A program made the translations under genes and the position numbers. 64,000 nucleotides of DNA, taken from Octopus vulgaris. Its lineage: Eukaryota. The DNA is taken from the NCBI GenBank assembly GCA_951406725.2, contig OX597827.1, positions 79,980,001-80,044,000 of the forward strand, read 5' to 3'. The notes beneath the pieces are model-generated. The model was not told where the DNA came from. It searched no databases and saw only the letters and a list, made by a program, of their open reading frames with translations. Numbering within the stretch: position 1 is the stretch's first letter; each line of letters opens with the position of its first letter. Below are positions 9,694-63,426 of this stretch, one piece after another.

Positions 9694-9780
9694 TCAATTT
9701 CTAGCAACACCTGGAGGTGAAGGTAATTGTCTCTCTGGAGTTTTCACAAGTCTGTCTTGGTAATGGTCTCTCTCTCACTG
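9694..9780 (-). pseudogene. Relic of a divergent protocadherin terminal exon, cut by a LINE insertion
   Basis: Translates as ERDHYQDRLVKTPERQLPSPPGVARN*, homologous to ERQQYQDRYVKPPERQLPSTPDVITN*; in-frame TGA upstream and a LINE fragment adjacent. Confidence 0.65.
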
Positions 9781-9784
9781 CTAT

Positions 9785-10265
9785 ACACTCCTAAAATAAA
9801 TATATTTCCCTGGGCATGGATTCACTGAAGCTCCGGCGTCTGGCAACTGACTTGGTAAACACCCACAAAGTTATCAACCACCTCACCAACAACAACACTG
9901 AACACCTTTTTGATCTCCATGTGTCCAACACACGTGGACATGCCTACAAAGTCAGAAAACAGCACAGCTCCCATGACTTTCGGAAACATTTTTTCACGCT
10001 CAGAGTTGTTGAAGCATGGAACAAATTGCCTGCGTCAGTTGTTGACTGCCATGACACTGCATCCTTTAAGGTCCTCATGCTTTCCGAAATCTGCCGAAAC
10101 TACACCTGATTGTCCCCCCTTCCATACTCATACACATATGTGTATGTCATGACTCATGCACTGTTCTTTTCCTGACGCTTGTACATTACCCTATGTACTA
10201 TACATACACTTTAGATGAGTTGTAGTGCACCTGAGCGCTGTACACAATGTTTTATTATTATTATA
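9785..10265 (+). mobile_element. 5'-truncated CR1/L2-group LINE 3' end
   Basis: ORF2 C-terminus TRGHAYKVRKQHS..RKHFFTLRVVEAWNKLP, then 3' UTR and (TTA)n tail. Confidence 0.8.
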
Positions 10266-10354
10266 TAGGTGTAGTGAGTAGGATTAATAATTTGCAGATT
10301 ATTCGTTAGACCCCCATTGACAGATGTTATGAAAAGGCAGTAGACATTTTAAAC

Positions 10355-10492
10355 CTAATTCTTCCAGGATTTCTTCGTGTTGTTTCTCTCTGCTCAATTC
10401 CAATTTGGTTGGAAGCCATTGTGAATTCTCAGAGATTCATCATGGCCAATGGTGTGTTGTTTCTGGTCCTCTGTAAGATGATTGTGATTCTG
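10355..10492 (-). pseudogene. Probable relic of the penultimate protocadherin cytoplasmic exon
   Basis: TAG-CAG acceptor and G|GT donor; ends SREKQHEEILEELG versus SSRQYEEIPAMSG; internal stop/frameshift; correct order relative to the 9694-9780 relic. Confidence 0.45.
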
Positions 10493-12439
10493 CTAAATAG
10501 AAAGAACAGACTAAATTAATAAACATCTACAGTAATTGATATAATTCAGTGCAGAGATAAAGATTAGACAGCAAAAAGTGGGAGAAAGATTAGATGGGAT
10601 ATTAGCAAGAAGTGAGAGATGATTAAAGCTGATGGCTTAGAGAATACAAGAAACATTATTGGGGATGGAATTACTGTTGAGAATTGGTGTTTTCTTCAGT
10701 TGTTAAATACATTCATACAAGATTCTTCTCACAAATGGATATTTGGTGTAATAGCCATGTCTACCACCAATAATTCCACTTCTTGGAGTGGTTTGAAAGG
10801 TGTATTGTGTTATAAAAACATAGACGTGTCGCATAGTTTCCATCTTAAAACATTTGGTATACGTTGGTTGGACAACACAATTTTGTGTCATTTATTTCTA
10901 CAGCATTGCTCTTTCACTTCAACAATCTTAAATGGAAGCATCTTCTTTGCTTCACTGAATTTCTCTCCCTTATCACTGACCAATAATATGATGGCCACAA
11001 CTGAAAAATTTCAGTAAAAGCTATATTGCTGAAGTTGATAACATCAACTTCTTCAAAATGAGAAGTACCTTATAAAAGTTTCCCCACATAGAATCTTCAT
11101 TTCTTCCTGAAATTCTTGGAGCAGAAACCATTCCAGTGAATGCCAATCATCTTCTTAATGTTCCCTTTTCCATGCTTTGCTGGGTCGGACAGAGTTTATT
11201 TGAAGCAGATTTTCTACAGCCGGATGCTCTTCCTGTTGCCAAACCTTACTTGTTCCTAAGGAAGGTAATATTTCCTCATGCCAGAAATCTTTTCACAGAA
11301 CCTGGGGAATTAGTGACATTCATTTACAACAATCACATGATGTCAAGACATGGACGGACACACAACAGGCTTCTTTCAGTTTCCATCATCCAAATCCACT
11401 CACAAGGCTTTTTGATCAGTCACTTTTTTTCTGCCTATTAATGTTAATTGAGTTGCTAATATTTAAATACCTTGATTATGGATGAATTATACCACACTGT
11501 AGTATCTACTTATAGAAAGTGACCTGGTCGTCAATAGTTAAAAGTTCTGGCTATGGAAAGAGTGGAGGGAAATACAGAAAACCTTCACTATTATTGCTAG
11601 AACTGACTTTGCTTGATGGACTCCCAGCTTCACAATGTGCAAAACATCCTCTCTTGACTGCATCCAGTACCTGTGCAGTATGGAATTTGGTGAGGTGGTA
11701 GCCTAGTGGTGAAGGTGGTAATAATGAAAATGTGGTGTTAGTGTTCAACCCAAGGTCAACACTGATCCAGTAGACCGATCATCAGACTTTCAAGCAGTGA
11801 CCCTCCAGTCTTTTATTCAGACATTGCTTTTCCAATGTGTCGTTCTTTTGTTTTTTTCAAGTGTGACTTGACCCCTTGGCATTATTCAGATTATTGTCAA
11901 ATGTAATCCTTATTCATCCACACTGTTTTCAGTTAATCAAGATTTCAATGATGTGATTGTTTATAATATTAGAATGACATTGAAGGGCTGCTTTGAACAG
12001 AAAAAAAGGTAGAATATTTGGGCCAGATTCGGCTGGTTCAAATGCTGAAGGGTCAAGGGAAATTTGGTTGTTATTTCTGTCTGTGTGACCATCTGCCAAG
12101 AAGCTGCCTCATTGGTTCAAGGTGATGCTGTTGTGTAGCAATAGTGTACACAATCACAGTGATGTAGTGGTGGGGATGCTATAAATGGTGCCAGTGTTTA
12201 TGGTGTGTATACAAATACACATACCTCTACACATCATATAGCAACATGTATGGGTGGTGTGATTCTGTGTATATGTTATTTCTGACACTAAAACATTCAG
12301 TATACACTGCTGACAGTGGCCCAGGAATGAAATTTGCTTACAGGATACAAGCTCAGGCCCAAATGTTTTTTTCAATCGTAATATCAAAATAAACACAGGT
12401 CTAGTAATATTTTTTTTAAATATATGGCAAAGCAATGCT

Positions 12440-25448: not shown

Positions 25449-25882
25449 ATTGATTGTGTGTAAAATCCTTTGTTGTATAAACTGTGACTTGGTCCCAATG
25501 TTCTGTTGTTAATGGTTGTCTGTGTCACTGCTGCTATGGTGTGACAATGGCTTCATGTTGATGGAATAGTGTTGGTGGTGAGTCAGTGGGAACCAGCAGT
25601 TCCCTCTCAGTCTTCCTTTGTGGATGTGTGGTGTATAATGTGTGTATGTGTGCGCGTATAAGGATGTAACATAGAAGGGTGATGCTTACTCCAGCTTCAT
25701 TCAGATTAGATGCTGTGTTCCTCATCAGTGAGGAGAACACACAATATCAGCCATAATAAATCCATATTAGACCAACACATCTGATGCAAAGACACTGACA
25801 CAAAAATGCTCAGCAAAAATTAATCTCTACAATAAAAATAGAGCCCATGCTGTTACTATATTAATAAATTGCTAGCTAACGG
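25449..25882 (-). promoter_or_regulatory. Second orphan protocadherin-type promoter/exon 1
   Basis: Near-identical duplicate of 26724-27172; donor AAT|GTAAGT at 25449. Confidence 0.6.
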
Positions 25883-26723: not shown

Positions 26724-27260
26724 AGCATGTAAAATCCTTTGTTATAAACTGTGACTTGGTCCCAATGTTCTGTTGTTAATGGTTGTCTGTGTCACTGCTG
26801 CTATGGTGTGACAATGGCTTCATGTTGATGGAATAGTGTTGGTGGTGAGTCAGTGGGAACCAGCAGTTCCCTCTCAAGTCTTCCTCTGTGGATGGGTGGT
26901 GTATAATGTGTGTATGTGTGTGTGTGTGTGAGTGTGTGTGTGCGTATAAAGATGTAACATAGAAGGGTGATGCTTACTCCAGCTTCATTCAGATTAGATG
27001 CTGTGTTCCTCATCAGTGAGGAGAACACACAATATCAGCCATAATAAATCCATATTAGACCAACACATCTGATGCAAAGACACTGACACAAAAATGCTCA
27101 GCAAAAATTAATCTCTACAATAAAAATAGAGCCCATGCTGTTACTATATTAATAAATTGCTAGCTAACGGTTCATACAGATCTCATATTAACAAAACATC
27201 ACTGATATTGGTAAATATATTACTAACAGATGATGTTAATATAGAACAATTCTGGTTAAG
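26724..27260 (-). promoter_or_regulatory. Orphan protocadherin-type promoter/exon 1 (no ectodomain exon follows)
   Basis: Homologous to the exon-1 block; donor GCT|GTAAGT at 26724. Confidence 0.6.
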
Positions 27261-27597: not shown

Positions 27598-27716
27598 TCA
27601 GTTAGTAATGACATCTGGTGTTGAAGGTAACTGTCTCTCTGGAGGTTTCACATATCTGTCTTGATACTGTTGTCTTTCAGGGTTCACTGGTGTATCCTGT
27701 TGGCTACCATAGATCC
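27598..27716 (-). CDS. Pcdh: Protocadherin A terminal coding exon (GIYGSQQDTP...PERQLPSTPDVITN*)
   Basis: Acceptor ttttgcag, phase 1 continues the frame to TGA at 27598-27600; recurs in all five units. Confidence 0.85.
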
Positions 27717-27884
27717 CTGCAAAACATTGTTTTAATGTAGCAATGTCTGAAACAATCACCATCATCAGAAATACTCTAGGGACACACAGACAGAACTAAT
27801 TACATCTCAGTCTACAACAATAATTAGTACAATAATTAGTAATGAATTACTGTAATATTAAATGAGAATGGATTGTTGTCCTAC

Positions 27885-28038
27885 CTGACATTGCTGGTAT
27901 TTCTTCATACTGTCTACTTGACCGCTCACTCCAGCACTGTCCACTGCTCTTACGACTGGTCAATGTGTCAGTGGGATAGTTAGAAGATGGTCTGTTGTCT
28001 CCATACGATGTCACCTCAATCGGTTGACTGTATTTCTG
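27885..28038 (-). CDS. Pcdh: Protocadherin A cytoplasmic exon (QKYSQPIEV...QYEEIPAMS, 154 nt)
   Basis: Acceptor aacag|CAG, open phase-0 frame matching the upstream donor, donor TCAG|GTAGG; same exon recurs in all five units. Confidence 0.85.
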
Positions 28039-29371: not shown

Positions 29372-31720
29372 CCTGGTTGATTTCTGGAGTGTTCTGTTCA
29401 TTGTAGACATCTTCCAGTCATCTGGATAGTAATGGCTCTTCGAATGACCATATCTGTCTGATATCTCTCCTCGATTACCTGACATCACAGACACACTGTT
29501 GTTACCTTGATAGATCAACTGTCTCATCTCATTGCGACATTGGTATGCCTGTTTCTCTTCTGCTGTTCTTTCAGATGAGCTATTTCTCACATTGTTACAT
29601 CTCACAATACACAGGGTTATAGAAACCACAATAGCTATAGATACTATCACAGCTGCTACTACAATGATAATCAACAATGTCGCATCTATTGTGTTATCAC
29701 TTGGTAGGTGCACAGCTGTGAACATTGGTGACGTCTTGTTACTAACAGTCAGTGTCAAAGACACACTAGTTGTTGCTGACAGAACTGGAGTACCACTGTC
29801 TTTCACAACAAACTCAAGCTTATATGATCCGGCATCATTTTGGTAAACTGTGCGAGAGTAAGATAACACACCAGTGAACGAATCCAGTTTAAATAACTGT
29901 CTCTCGTTACCTGAAACGATTTCATACCTGAGAAAAGCATTCATGTGACTGTCTATATCAGATGCTTTCAGAACTGTGATGTCGTTCTTACTTTGCGGAT
30001 GATAGTGGACATTAAGAGTGAAAGGGTCAACACTAGGAAATGTAAAATATGGAGCATTATCATTTCTATCCAATACTTCCACTTCAACATTCACTGTGTT
30101 ATTCAGAGATGGGCTTCCATTGTCTTTCACAAAAACCTCAAACTCATAGAAATCTCTGTGTTCTCTGTCTAAAGACTGGTTTGTTGAAATAAAGCCAGAG
30201 TTGATAATCTGGAATGGCAGACGATATTGCTGTTTATTTCTCAGAGAATAAGACAATTCACCTCCCTTACCAATATCTGGGTCTGTAGCATTGATAAAGC
30301 CAATAGGGAAATTAGCTTTGTCATTCTCATAGGTAAGGAACTTGAATGTGTCTTTCGTAAAGTGTGGTTCTACATCATTCACATCTAACACTTGGATTGA
30401 CAGATCTTTATCAGTTTTCAGAGCAGGTAATCCTTTATCTTCACACGACACAGTAAAGTGATAATGTTCCTGTGTCTCTCTGTCTACTGCTTTCTTTAGA
30501 ACTATTTTATATTCCTTCGATCCCATTGACTGTAGTTTGAATGTGTCATCTTTGATATGACAGTTCACCTGTCCATTGTGTCCAACATCATTGTCAGTGA
30601 CCATCACATAAGCAATGAAACTACCAACTTTGATGTCTTCCAGAATGGTAGCTGTGTTGTGATTCTGTGTAGAAATAAAGTTCACATCAATATTTGGGGG
30701 ATTGTTTTGTTGGTTGATGACATTTACCATAACAGTTGCTATGGAACTGAGGGGAGGTTTGCCACCATCTCTGGCTTCAATGTATAATTTAAATGATTTC
30801 TTCTTTTCTAAATTAGAATGTTTAGACTGGAATATTTCCCCTGATTGCTGTTCTATCCTAAAGTTGTTCATTGACTCTTTAGATGTTAATGAACTGATAT
30901 AATATGAAACTTTACCATTCTCTCCAATATCAGAGTCTTCTGCCAACATTACAACAACTGGTCTATTCCTTTGATGGTTATTTTGTATGGAGACATTGTA
31001 TGTTTTCTCAGAGAAAATTGGTCTGTTATCATTTTCATCTTTCACAGTTATGTGCACATTTAAGACACCCTGTTTGGGTGGATTGCCTCCATCCTTAGCA
31101 ATCACTTCTATATTATAGCTATCTTTCGTCTCCCTATCTAACTTTGCTTCTAAAACGATTTCTAATGATAGCAAACTATCTGCTATCTGAAATGTGGACA
31201 AAGAAAACTGTAGGTTATTTCCCTTCAATTCGTAATTCACTAATCTGTTCTGTAATCCAACATCTTTGTCAATCGCATTGGGAATCGATTGTTTTGTACC
31301 TTTACCTTCAGTTTCAGAATATTCCAGTTTAATTTCTTCGACAGGAAACTCTGGTTGATGGTCATTGATGTCTTCTATAATCACCTTAATTTTCAATATC
31401 TTTATAAATTTACCTGCTTTATGAACGGCTACCTTAATTGTGTGAAAGCATTCTTTCTCAAAAGTACACAGAGACTCAGCATCCAGTGTTTGTGTGGTGT
31501 ATATCTTCCCAGTGGTGGTCACATTAAACAGCTGTGTTCCCTTCTGTTGCAACTGACTGAACGATAATAATGCAGTGTCCTTTAACTGGGAATCAGCAGT
31601 AATGTCTCCTATGTTGATAACAGGACTGTTCTCTTCTTTCACATGGTAAACAATGTCTTTAGAGACAGAACAGTGAAGCAGAGACTGTAATATCCAAATC
31701 GCTATTAAGACCATCTTCAT
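29372..31720 (-). CDS. Pcdh: Protocadherin A, large coding exon (signal peptide, EC1-EC6, TM, proximal cytoplasmic tail; 783 codons)
   Basis: ORF with hydrophobic N-terminus, cadherin motifs (EDINDHQPEF, LDRE, DENDNRPIF, DVNDVEPHF, DRNDNAPYF), EC1 CX5C (CTFEKEC) and TM LLIIIVVAAVIVSIAIVVSITLCIV. Ends at phase-0 donor AGG|GTAAGT at 29372; acceptor TTTTCAG starts the exon at 31748. Confidence 0.95.
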
Positions 31721-33070
31721 TTGTTGAGTTTAATACCAGTCAATTGATCTGAAAATATAAAGGTACACAACTGCCAGTCACATTACAGAAACAAATAACA
31801 GATTTATAATATTTATTCTCTTAACCACAGCAAAATAAACATCTTTTTATTATATTAAATGTTTTCATTCTTTCTTGCTTTACCTTCATTAATCACAATA
31901 ATACCCAATATATTATATTTATAAAATGTGTAACGAAGCAGTATTAAGTTCATTATTGTTGCATAATTTACAGGAAGATGCGAGTTCTAATTTCCATCTT
32001 TGCTTCATTAACTAAACTTTAAAATACAATATTTTAAGCAGAATGTCACAGAATTCCAAGGAGCGATACTTGTTGTTTGTAAGAATGTTATATATGAAAT
32101 ATAAAGTATTTAATTGTCTTTTTAACTGATTTGGATAGATATTGGAGTGCTGTGATGTAACTGAGTGAAAAAAAACACAGCCAACCACCTCATCATGTAC
32201 AATCTATTTAATCACTCAAGTTAGATTTCATTCTTACCAGGAAATAAGAGAGAAGGACCATTGTAAATAATCCAAACTTTTCCTGATAAAGGATGAGTGT
32301 CTAGAGACATCAGAGTTAAGTAGACACAGAAACAGGAGATGATATGGAGAAGCTAGGCATGGAAGCTAAAAGATCTATGACTGTAGGGAGAAAGATTGAA
32401 ACACTTGCACCATAGATTGACTACTGAGAATTACAGCAAAATAATCTGCAAGGGCCATGGGATCTGAGTGACTCCCATTGAAACTGACGGTGACATGACG
32501 GCAGAATGATATAAAAGACAAAGAGACAGGCTTGGAAAACCCAGAAGGAAGGTGGTTGTAGGGAGCATTATCAAACAGCATGAAGGGTAGCTAGGCAAAC
32601 AGGTGTACATACTCAGCTCAGGGTAGGGCAGAAAAGAAGAAATTTGCACATGTTCTGCAACATAAGGATCAGCAACATGAAGTGTTGAGGATTGTAAGAC
32701 AATGTGAGTTAAAGAGAACTCAGATACCATTGGTGAGAAGTAAATTTGGAATTATGAAGGCACACTGGCCATTGCCATGGAAGATAAGAGACAAGGGAGT
32801 GCTTTTAGGAGAGGTTGTCGAATGTGGAGAATGGGGGGGGCTACTTCATGTTGAGCCTACAGAGGACCAGCAATTCAAGTTGACAGCAATGGTAAAGAAA
32901 TGAAGAGAAAGCAAGTTGTAGGGTCATCAAGGACAGATGTAGAGATGTCCAAGAGATCTGGTAAAGTAAGCTATATAGGATTACCACTTGGACAGGAAAT
33001 CAGGTTATACAATGACTGACATAACGGTATCACAGTGAACTGATACAAAAACAAAGGAGATGCCTTAGAG

Positions 33071-37490: not shown

Positions 37491-37990
37491 CTTCATTGTG
37501 TGTAAAATCCTTTGTTGTATAAACTGTGACTTGGTCCCAATGTTCTGTTGTTAATGGTTGTCTGTGTCACTGCTGCTATGGTGTGACAATAGGCTTCATG
37601 TTGATGGAATAGTGTTGGTGGTGAGTCAGTGGGAACCAGCAGTTCCCTCTCAGTCTTCCTTTGTGGATGTGTGGTGTTTAGTGAGTGTGTGTGTGTGTGT
37701 GCATGTAAATGAGAGAGGGGGTGGGAGAGAAAGATGGGTGATGCTTGCTCCAGCATCACAAAGAAGAGGGAAAGGAAGGGAGAGAACAAACAATATCAGC
37801 TCCACTAACAGTCAGCCATAAGAAGTCTATATAACACCAACATGTCTGATGTGGAGAGAGAGAGAGAGACTGGCATAGATATATATATATATATTCAGTG
37901 TTTCATACGGATCTCATATTAACAAAACATCACTGATATTGGTAAATATATTACTAACAAATGATGTTAATATAGAACAGTTCTGGTTAA
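37491..37990 (-). promoter_or_regulatory. Putative promoter and non-coding exon 1 of protocadherin A
   Basis: Conserved block found upstream of each large exon, ending in a strong donor AAG|GTAAGT (37491/37490). Contains TGAGTCA (AP-1 consensus) and (GA)n/(CA)n tracts. TSS position unknown. Confidence 0.7.
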
Positions 37991-38487: not shown

Positions 38488-38606
38488 TCAGTTAGTAATG
38501 ACATCTGGTGTTGAAGGTAACTGTCTCTCTGGAGGTTTCACATATCTGTCTTGATACTGTTGTCTTTCGGGGTTCACTGGTGTATCCTGTTGGCTACCAT
38601 AGATCC
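38488..38606 (-). CDS. Pcdh: Protocadherin B terminal coding exon
   Basis: Copy of the 27598-27716 exon, TGA at 38488-38490. Confidence 0.85.
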
Positions 38607-38731
38607 CTGCAAAAGATTGTTTTAATTAATTACATCTCAGAATTAATTACATCTCAGTCTACAACAATAATTAGTACAATAATTAGTAATGAATTAGTGT
38701 AATATTAAATGAGAATGGATTGTTATCCTAC

Positions 38732-38885
38732 CTGACATTGCTGGTATTTCTTCATACTGTCTACTTGACCGCTCACTCCAGCACTGTCCACTGCTCTTAC
38801 GACTGGTCAGTGTGTCAGTGGGATAGTGAGAAGACGGTCTGTTGTCTCCATAAGATGTCACCTCAATCGGTTGACTGTATTTCTG
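38732..38885 (-). CDS. Pcdh: Protocadherin B cytoplasmic exon (154 nt)
   Basis: Copy of the 27885-28038 exon with intact splice sites. Confidence 0.85.
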
Positions 38886-48278: not shown

Positions 48279-48397
48279 TCAGTTAGTAATGACATCTGGT
48301 GTTGAAGGTAACTGTCTCTCTGGAGGTTTCACATATCTGTCTTGATACTGTTGTCTTTCGGGGTTCACTGGTGTATCCTGTTGGCTACCATAGATCC
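48279..48397 (-). CDS. Pcdh: Protocadherin C terminal coding exon
   Basis: Copy of the conserved terminal exon, TGA at 48279-48281. Confidence 0.85.
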
Positions 48398-48555
48398 CTG
48401 CAAAAGAGTGTTTTAATGTAGAAATGTCTGAAACAATCACCATCATCAGAAATACTCTACGGACACACAGACAGAACTAATTATATCTCAGAGTCTACAA
48501 CAATAATTAGTAATGAATTACTGTAATATTAAATGAGAATGGATTGATATCCTAC

Positions 48556-48709
48556 CTGACATTGCTGGAATTTCTTCATACTGTCTACTTGACCGCTCAC
48601 TCCAGCACTGTCCACTGCTCTTACGACTGGTCAATGTGTCAGTGGGATAGTTAGAGGATGGTCTGTTGTCTCCATAAGATGTCACCTCAATCGGTTGACT
48701 GTATTTCTG
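48556..48709 (-). CDS. Pcdh: Protocadherin C cytoplasmic exon (154 nt)
   Basis: Copy of the conserved exon with intact splice sites. Confidence 0.85.
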
Positions 48710-55814: not shown

Positions 55815-55933
55815 TCAGTTAGTAATGACATCTGGTGTTGAAGGTAACTGTCTCTCTGGAGGTTTCACATATCTGTCTTGATACTGTTGTCTTTCGGGGT
55901 TCACTGGTGTATCCTGTTGGCTACCATAGATCC
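55815..55933 (-). CDS. Pcdh: Protocadherin D terminal coding exon
   Basis: Copy of the conserved terminal exon, TGA at 55815-55817. Confidence 0.85.
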
Positions 55934-56091
55934 CTGCAAAACATTGTTTTAATGTAGCAATGTCTGAAACAATTATCATCATCAGAAATACTCTAGGGAC
56001 ACACAGACAGAACTAATTACATCTCAGAGTATACAACAATAATTAGTAATGAATTACTGTAATATTAAATGAGAATGGATTGTTGTCCTAC

Positions 56092-56245
56092 CTGACATTG
56101 CTGGTATTTCTTCATACTGTCTGCTTGACCGCTCACTCCAGCACTGTCCACTGCTCTTACGACTGGTCAGTGTGTCAGTGGGATAGTGAGAAGATGGTCT
56201 GTTGTCTCCATAAGATGTCACCTCAATCGGTTGACTGTATTTCTG
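56092..56245 (-). CDS. Pcdh: Protocadherin D cytoplasmic exon (154 nt)
   Basis: Copy of the conserved exon with intact splice sites. Confidence 0.85.
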
Positions 56246-62997: not shown

Positions 62998-63116
62998 TCA
63001 GTTAGTAATGACATCTGGTGTTGAAGGTAACTGTCTCTCTGGAGGTTTCACATATCTGTCTTGATACTGTTGTCTTTCGGGGTTCACTGGTGTATCCTGT
63101 TGGCTACCATAGATCC
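62998..63116 (-). CDS. Pcdh: Protocadherin E terminal coding exon
   Basis: Fifth copy of the terminal exon, TGA at 62998-63000. Confidence 0.8.
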
Positions 63117-63272
63117 CTGCAAAACATTGTTTTAATGTAGCAATGTCAGAAACAATCACCATCATCAGAAATACTCTAGGGACACACAGACAGAACTAAT
63201 TACATCTCAGTCTACAACAATAATTAGTAATGAATTACTGTAATATTAAATGAGAATGGATTGTTGTCCTAC

Positions 63273-63426
63273 CTGACATTGCCGGTATTTCTTCATACTG
63301 TCTACTTGACCGCTCACTCCAGCACTGTCCACTGCTCTTCCGACTGGTCAGTGTGTCAGTGGGATAGTTAGAGGATGGTCTGTTGTCTCCATAAGATGTC
63401 ACCTCAATCGGTTGACTGTATTTCTG
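63273..63426 (-). CDS. Pcdh: Protocadherin E cytoplasmic exon (ectodomain exon presumably beyond the window)
   Basis: Fifth copy of the 154-nt exon with intact splice sites. Confidence 0.8.

Follow-up and report, generated by a model that had tools for sequence, protein, structure and literature searches.

Many octopod protocadherin tails share a tyrosine motif, joined in some groups by a candidate class I SH3 ligand, that may form a docking site for Src-family kinases

The expansion of protocadherins in cephalopods ranks among the foremost cases of convergence with vertebrate brains, and the locus described here raises the question of what the cytoplasmic tails of these receptors connect to inside the cell. 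In the available part of PMC6339937, the motif table for octopus protocadherins covers EC1, EC5, EC6, the transmembrane segment (TM) and PP1 only, and intracellular interactions are called unexplored. The window, by which we mean the whole stretch of 64,000 nucleotides that was analysed (OX597827.1, contig G000:C14 of our set, 79,980,001-80,044,000, in the 2.8 Gb genome of Octopus vulgaris), contains four long cadherin frames, all on the minus strand, at the low-coordinate limit of an octopus protocadherin array of 24 genes. An original prediction, made from the letters of the window, held that the tails encoded here carry paired ligands for the SH2 and SH3 domains of Src-family kinases. Neither motif is mentioned in the cephalopod protocadherin literature as searched, which included the available part of the PMC6339937 supplement and covered the field incompletely, and a literature search returned no phosphorylation or binding data for the octopus protocadherin tail.

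Within about 215 kb of a single strand, 24 sets of exons 1, 2 and 3 follow one another head to tail, at least one of them with a broken exon 1. Every one of the 24 genes owns its exons 2 and 3, and there are no shared constant exons. Exon 1 matches Pfam Cadherin in six stretches as well as Cadherin_2, and GT/AG sites join exons 1-3 into a single frame of 874 aa with a tail of about 170 aa (Table 1). Both motifs lie in this one spliced frame and on the cytoplasmic side. The exact intron-2 joint was bridged by contigs in three of four runs and the intron-1 joint in one of four, where the runs are presumed to be RNA and near-identical paralogues are indistinguishable, so that the joints are not assignable to one gene. 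The C-terminal sequence of an O. sinensis database model (P0002) is the same exon 2-3 sequence. The acceptor at 28038 is a NAGNAG in 22 of the 24 models, and database isoform pairs differ by one Gln.

A leader exon of about 200 nt is present in 25 copies with 93-100% identity (including those at 25450-25650, 26728-26918 and 37492-37693), which lie about 0.7-1.2 kb beyond the preceding gene's stop. The acceptor at 31750 was joined to a leader copy in three of four runs, and in one contig a 3' UTR is continuous with a leader copy. Downstream of the leader copies at 25.5 and 26.8 kb there is no intact coding exon, and a joint links 26723 to 26399. One array gene (G000:C14 about 80.19 Mb; extract 213355-215807) has an exon 1 split over two frames, either through a frameshift or through faulty assembly. 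A lone exon 1 fragment at L111:9668-9922, a short way ahead of the window start, comprises the TM and proximal tail, is 93% identical and has no upstream ectodomain.

Table 1. Positions of the exons, candidate motifs and decayed gene within the window
Feature	Position	Strand	Remarks
Large coding exon 1	29372..31720	-	Signal peptide, six cadherin repeats, TM helix and first ~80 aa of tail; from open reading frame and donor; phase 0
Exon 2	27885..28038	-	154 nt; middle of tail; phase 1; NAGNAG acceptor; from splice sites, frame and contig joints
Terminal exon 3, coding part with stop	27598..27716	-	Joint 27715/27884 in 3/4 runs
Conserved leader exon, likely serving the gene at 31.7-27.6 kb	37492..37693	-	~0.8 kb beyond stop of preceding gene
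YEEIP, candidate phosphotyrosine SH2 ligand	27895..27909	-	Tyr is tail residue ~122; exon-2 donor follows after 25 nt
RQLPSTP, candidate class I SH3 ligand	27616..27636	-	35 residues after YEEI tyrosine
IYG, second tyrosine, context like Src-family peptide substrates	27706..27714	-	Putative function
YVKP, YxxP-type site just upstream of SH3 ligand	27643..27654	-	Putative function
Motif pair, second copy	38506..38756	-	YEEIP from 38756, SH3 ligand from 38526
Motif pair, third copy	48297..48580	-	Starts 48580/48317
Motif pair, fourth copy	55833..56116	-	Starts 56116/55853
Motif pair, fifth copy	63016..63297	-	Starts 63297/63036; exon 1 just beyond window end
Decayed protocadherin gene	9694..11688	-	EC1 scraps 11688-11547; exon 2 about 10492-10355; exon 3 about 9790-9694

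As had been claimed, YEEIP and RQLPSTP are present in all five tail copies of the window (5/5), and both agree with the published consensus for Src-family SH2 and class I SH3 ligands (PMC6528292, PMC2888578, PMC4509517, as far as their available text goes). In 200,000 shuffles of the 172-aa tail, YEEI arose at a frequency of 0.0015, RxLPxxP at 0.0023 and both together at 1e-5. Over the whole array, YEEIP was found in 24/24 genes, RxLPxxP in 22/24 and [RK]xLPxxP in 23/24. A common interspersed repeat spells a match to RxLPxxP in non-coding DNA (window 7524 and 21768; L111, L117 and L122-L125) and produces false hits in six-frame translation.

Synonymous divergence among array genes was 0.36-0.65 over residues 1-350 (EC1-EC3), 0.00-0.04 over residues 351-750 (EC4 to the proximal tail) and 0.21-0.26 over the rest, in a profile of 21 of the 24 genes that leaves out the three with short or broken exon-1 frames. 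Mean identity of exon 2 was 94% versus about 61% at the flanking intron ends; the exon-2 boundaries of gene models 9 and 10 are off by one codon. To judge from these values, the array is a set of old paralogues homogenised by exon-restricted gene conversion. Regional conversion of this sort has been described for fugu protocadherins (PMC1852091), and homogenisation by conversion has been suggested for coleoid protocadherins (PMC9068888). Because such conversion homogenises the array, counts of 24/24 for YEEIP and 22/24 for RxLPxxP would arise whether selection acts on the motifs or not. The five window copies are not independent, and their identity was likewise rejected as evidence of selection. 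The conversion boundary is sharp, near residue 350, and the introns are near background (29372-31720 and its 23 paralogues, to 80.22 Mb).

The original prediction had also pointed to a divergent relic at 9.7 kb that keeps RQLPSPP. The letters are indeed present (9732-9712), in an exon 3 whose reading frame does not fit the nearest acceptor and in which Leu replaces the YVKP tyrosine. Exon 2 of the relic has an internal stop, and HEEIL at 10379-10365 replaces YEEIP, with loss of both Tyr and Pro. The relic belongs to a decayed gene and is therefore no evidence of selection; the observation stood, but its use as evidence of conservation did not. Its best match is an intact Argonauta protein (P0025), which keeps YEEIP and RKLPSPP.

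Conservation outside the array was followed in an octopod set of 132 proteins (120 listed of 269 matches, plus 12 from further searches), whose tails fell into 36 groups at <45% identity. Among the matches listed, mean identity between the groups was 26% for the tail versus 60% for the adjoining ectodomain, and the commonest 4-mer in the tails, found without a prior pattern, was YEEI, which occurred exactly in 13/36 groups (shuffle mean 0.04, maximum 2). The relaxed form Y[ED][ET][IL], a pattern picked after seeing the data, occurred in 23/36 groups versus 0.36 in shuffled tails, and in group representatives the tyrosine motif lay 127-156 residues from the membrane, again among the matches listed. 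In an alignment of the 36, no column except one at the membrane edge was better conserved than Tyr (25/30) and Glu+1 (24/29), against a column mean of 0.39. The tyrosine motif was absent from 13/36 groups among the matches listed, seven of which have tails long enough (7/30 long-enough groups). For the proline motif, [RK]xLPxxP was found in 10/36 groups versus 0.20 shuffled, at three positions, and strict RxLPxxP in only 3/36 versus 0.10 shuffled, both among the matches listed. As a control, 63 other cadherin-family tails (those detectable among 143 proteins, mostly giant cadherins) contained YEEI in none, [RK]xLPxxP in none and the relaxed tyrosine motif in two. The expectation that the motifs extend beyond recent paralogues was borne out across these 36 divergent groups; the shuffles exclude chance and not neutral retention, because the tail groups share ancestry.

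At the level of codons, [QH]YEEIP gave 81 matches genome-wide, 63 of them on OX597827.1 and 18 elsewhere versus 16 in the control, and synonymous variation was seen at all four motif codons among these matches. A looser genome-wide scan for YEEIP codons gave 414 matches versus 234 in the control and was set aside as too loose to read. The named matches of the homologue searches were all octopods among the matches listed, which is not evidence of absence in squid; a wider representative search was dominated by giant cadherins, the Atlas gave only generic cadherin clusters, and no squid or cuttlefish tail was obtained from them. A bivalve protein whose tail could be detected (P0255) contains neither motif. 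Class II PxxPx[RK], generic YxxPhi, WIRS and PP1 patterns were not enriched in the octopod tails among the matches listed, where the WIRS pattern occurred in 4/132 tails, below chance at the group level, and the PP1 RVxF pattern in 2/132. A Pfam search with four full-length proteins found no vertebrate or other tail family.

The two motifs are frequently found apart. Among the matches listed, the tyrosine motif and [RK]xLPxxP occurred together in 8/36 groups, that is, in 8/10 of the groups with an SH3 ligand, in 8/23 of those with a tyrosine motif and in 1/13 of those with exact YEEI, the other 12/13 having no SH3 ligand. In a neighbouring protocadherin family, 15/15 proteins among the matches listed have HYEEIP without [RK]xLPxxP, and in close relatives P0031 and P0033 the second proline is lost. 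Pairing is thus optional, with the tyrosine site as the probable family-wide core and the SH3 site as an optional second anchor. A second array at G000:C14:80.38-80.68 Mb shows 29 evenly spaced HYEEIP-codon matches, and its listed proteins have no class I SH3 motif.

In a tree built from EC4-TM of 39 octopod and 2 bivalve rows, with motif labels that depend on the isoform representing each group, the tyrosine motif spans the octopod radiation and is present in both halves. The SH3 ligand takes three forms in this tree: C-terminal KPLPxxP in an unresolved basal set, C-terminal R[QK]LPS[TP]P in the family of the window array, and R[RK]LPPVP in one nested clade, where it precedes the tyrosine. 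A profile of the long tails gave 38 matches, 28 with the tyrosine motif, 34 with the SH3 motif and 24 with both, counts that are not independent because the profile itself contained the motifs. In the long-tail group, Tyr stands two residues before the basic residue in 29/35 motif matches.

A kinase partner for these sites can be proposed from the same genome, in which we found 36 SH2 and 55 SH3 exon matches. One exon, L081, encodes a myristoylation-type N-terminus and an SH3 domain that matches c-Src SH3 with an E of 1.5e-24 and retains ALYDY, the RT-loop Asp, WW and PSNY. On the usual residue numbering, the class I SH3-binding residues named in PMC4140816 are present in L081. Two SH2 exons farther along the strand of L081, L058 and L067, best match Hck/Frk, and the three exons are treated as one gene by position and strand only. 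An SH2 exon on another contig, L079, best matches Fyn and has YYIT intact; at a position occupied by Thr in Fyn and L079, L067 carries Ala. As far as can be read from these exons, the predicted Src-family SH2 and SH3 domains of octopus keep the matching pocket residues.

Published measurements bear on how such domains would meet the tail. The peptide pYEEI binds Src SH2 at 0.5 uM, the tightest of eight peptides reported in the available text of PMC2888578, and the assay probe used there contains QpYEEIP, whose QYEEIP is shared with the octopus tail. When 102 SH2 constructs were surveyed, Ac-pYEEIE bound four of them, FES, FYN, YES and PIK3R3, two of which are Src-family (PMC12951562). A class I ligand placed C-terminal to the tyrosine lowered the Km of c-Src from 28.7 to 4.3 uM, about sevenfold (PMC4509517), and this substrate layout is the layout of the octopus array tail. 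IYGS, with which exon 3 starts, recurs in the peptide substrate that PMC4140816 gives for the Src family (compare the substrates in PMC4509517). The YEEI tyrosine, however, is preceded by Arg and Gln, unlike the acidic ideal Src substrate of PMC4509517. Without acidic residues upstream of this tyrosine, another kinase may therefore have to prime the site.

We lean towards the reading that the tail is a docking site for a Src-family kinase, of the type known from FAK and p130Cas. Adhesion would cluster the receptors and the SH3 domain of the kinase would bind RQLPSTP. The docked kinase would phosphorylate the tail tyrosines of YEEI, IYG and YVKP, and pYEEI would then hold the kinase SH2 domain, keeping the kinase open and active, while pYxxP (YVKP) could recruit Crk/Nck-type adaptors to actin. 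Conversion keeps the tail near-identical across 24 genes while EC1-EC3 diverge, and many recognition ends would therefore feed one output. The bipartite docking tail put forward in the original prediction thus gains from the in-frame motifs, their wide conservation and the matching kinase exons, but the evidence first offered for it does not show selection, and the pairing of the two sites is optional.

Alternatively, the two motifs could serve separate partners outside the Src family, with pYEEI, pYDEI or pYETL binding Fes/Fer, PI3K or a Nck/Dock-type adaptor and the proline motif binding another SH3 protein. SH2 and SH3 ligands are promiscuous, the 36 SH2 and 55 SH3 exon matches offer many candidates, and the motifs are often uncoupled, with 15/23 tyrosine-motif groups lacking an SH3 ligand among the matches listed. 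In addition, FES and PIK3R3 were among the constructs bound by Ac-pYEEIE (PMC12951562). We nevertheless regard this arrangement as rather unlikely, since the commonest form of the motif is the Src-family optimum, its variants stay close to that optimum, and 8/10 SH3-ligand groups also have the tyrosine motif (among the matches listed).

The tyrosine motif might also act without phosphorylation, as a YxxPhi sorting signal for AP-2-type adaptors, with the proline motif binding an endocytic SH3 protein. YEEI, YEEL and YETL all fit the YxxPhi consensus, and some short tails carry the motif close to their C-terminal end. Such a role is improbable, however, given that the class as a whole is not enriched (28/36 groups versus 24.7 shuffled, among the matches listed), that the conserved acidic +1 residue is no part of that signal, and that 127-156 residues from the membrane is beyond the usual distance.

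That a purine-rich splice enhancer and donor context, spread by conversion, merely happens to spell YEEIP, with the proline motifs as low-complexity noise, is very unlikely: although 16-25 nt separate the motif from the exon-2 donor or donor-like site downstream, its Pro codon often provides the CAG before the donor, GAAGAA occurs in 9/12 loci, conversion accounts for all identity within the array and the common repeat spells RxLPxxP in non-coding DNA, the GAAGAA excess is not significant (P 0.058 versus codon bias), synonymous changes occur at the Tyr, both Glu and the Ile codons, the peptide is constant while the donor distance varies, the protein variants are conservative (YDEI, YEEL, YETL), and Tyr, the most conserved residue, lies outside the purine run. 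Splicing may nevertheless make some contribution to the conservation.

Tandem SH2/SH3 docking, the preferred reading for the octopus tail, is a textbook mechanism. The Src-binding linker of FAK contains the same kinds of motif, RALPSIP at 368-374 and pY397, about 30 residues apart, with Src bound via both domains (PMC6528292). FAK, however, is itself a kinase, primes its own tyrosine and has the SH3 ligand first, whereas the octopus array has a receptor tail with the SH3 ligand second (PMC6528292, available text); the FAK order, with the SH3 ligand upstream of the tyrosine, was found in one octopod clade only. The SH3 ligand of p130Cas, RPLPSPP, is similar to the octopus RQLPSTP, RQLPSPP and RKLPSPP, and both proteins have YxxP tyrosines, although p130Cas, an adaptor in the cytoplasm, has 15 YxxP sites and the octopus tail, which is membrane-anchored, has one (PMC2956669). 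The motif set is real and conserved and apparently undescribed, in a known family and with a mechanism of a known kind, whereas the partner is one that we infer. If the reading is correct, what would be new is the presence of such docking on these receptors, its conservation across the family and the possibility that splicing and editing control it, and the self-recognition proteins of octopus nerve cells would have a signalling route. As the analysis names one candidate partner along with the residues concerned and simple mutants of them, octopus protocadherin signalling becomes directly testable.

The window genes correspond to the octopus clustered protocadherins, which have six cadherin repeats and a TM in one large exon, tandem whole genes and conversion (PMC6339937, PMC9068888), and which are reported to have no vertebrate CM motifs (PMC6339937, available text). 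Like the octopus array, vertebrate clustered protocadherins of the alpha and gamma type combine diverse EC1-EC3 with a uniform tail and show regional 3' conversion. Their tails are linked to FAK and Pyk2 and reportedly inhibit both, whereas the octopus tail is proposed to activate Src-family kinases (PMC7339444 and PMC1852091 for both comparisons, available text). The vertebrate genes are spliced to shared constant exons, whereas octopus genes have their own tail exons. Vertebrate alpha-protocadherins (CNRs) are reported to be Fyn interactors. One second-hand sentence on this CNR-Fyn link is found in the available text of PMC10695140, Fyn and Src have 0 occurrences in a 2020 protocadherin signalling review (PMC7339444) and in PMC7811963, and PMC10084454 has Fyn only in an unrelated reference. 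A convergence with CNR-Fyn signalling, as raised in the original prediction, is conceivable but thinly sourced.

Some database isoforms stop short of exon 2 or of the last exon, which leaves them with one motif or none. Isoforms of this kind, all of them predicted models, recur at matching lengths in three species, O. vulgaris, O. sinensis and O. bimaculoides. A different kind of change was seen in P0207, an O. vulgaris protein with no genome contig listed and presumably mRNA-derived, which equals its genome-derived twin P0307 at 851/852 residues. The sole difference, at residue 843, is Tyr to Cys in the YEEL motif of a gene other than those of the window array; in O. bimaculoides and Argonauta, the counterpart reads Tyr at the motif. 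This change possibly reflects A-to-I editing, with which it fits, although as a single record it may be an allele or an error. A-to-I editing is reported to be enriched in octopus protocadherins (bioRxiv 10.1101/714394, available text), and no further Tyr-to-Cys record was found among ten clusters, the listed members of which are almost all genome-derived models. It is unlikely, but conceivable, that protocadherin self-recognition in octopods acquired, independently of vertebrates, a Src-kinase switch common to the whole family, in which conversion would supply a virtual constant region and the output would be tuned by dropping motif exons and by editing the docking Tyr to Cys.

Some tails have further features of their own. 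The long-tail proteins P0086, P0096 and P0110 and their relatives have in common another conserved block (IDLKS, WNLP, NSFT) that immediately precedes the KPLP motif, and in the tail of P0208 many repeats of an aromatic-rich unit replace the usual motifs.
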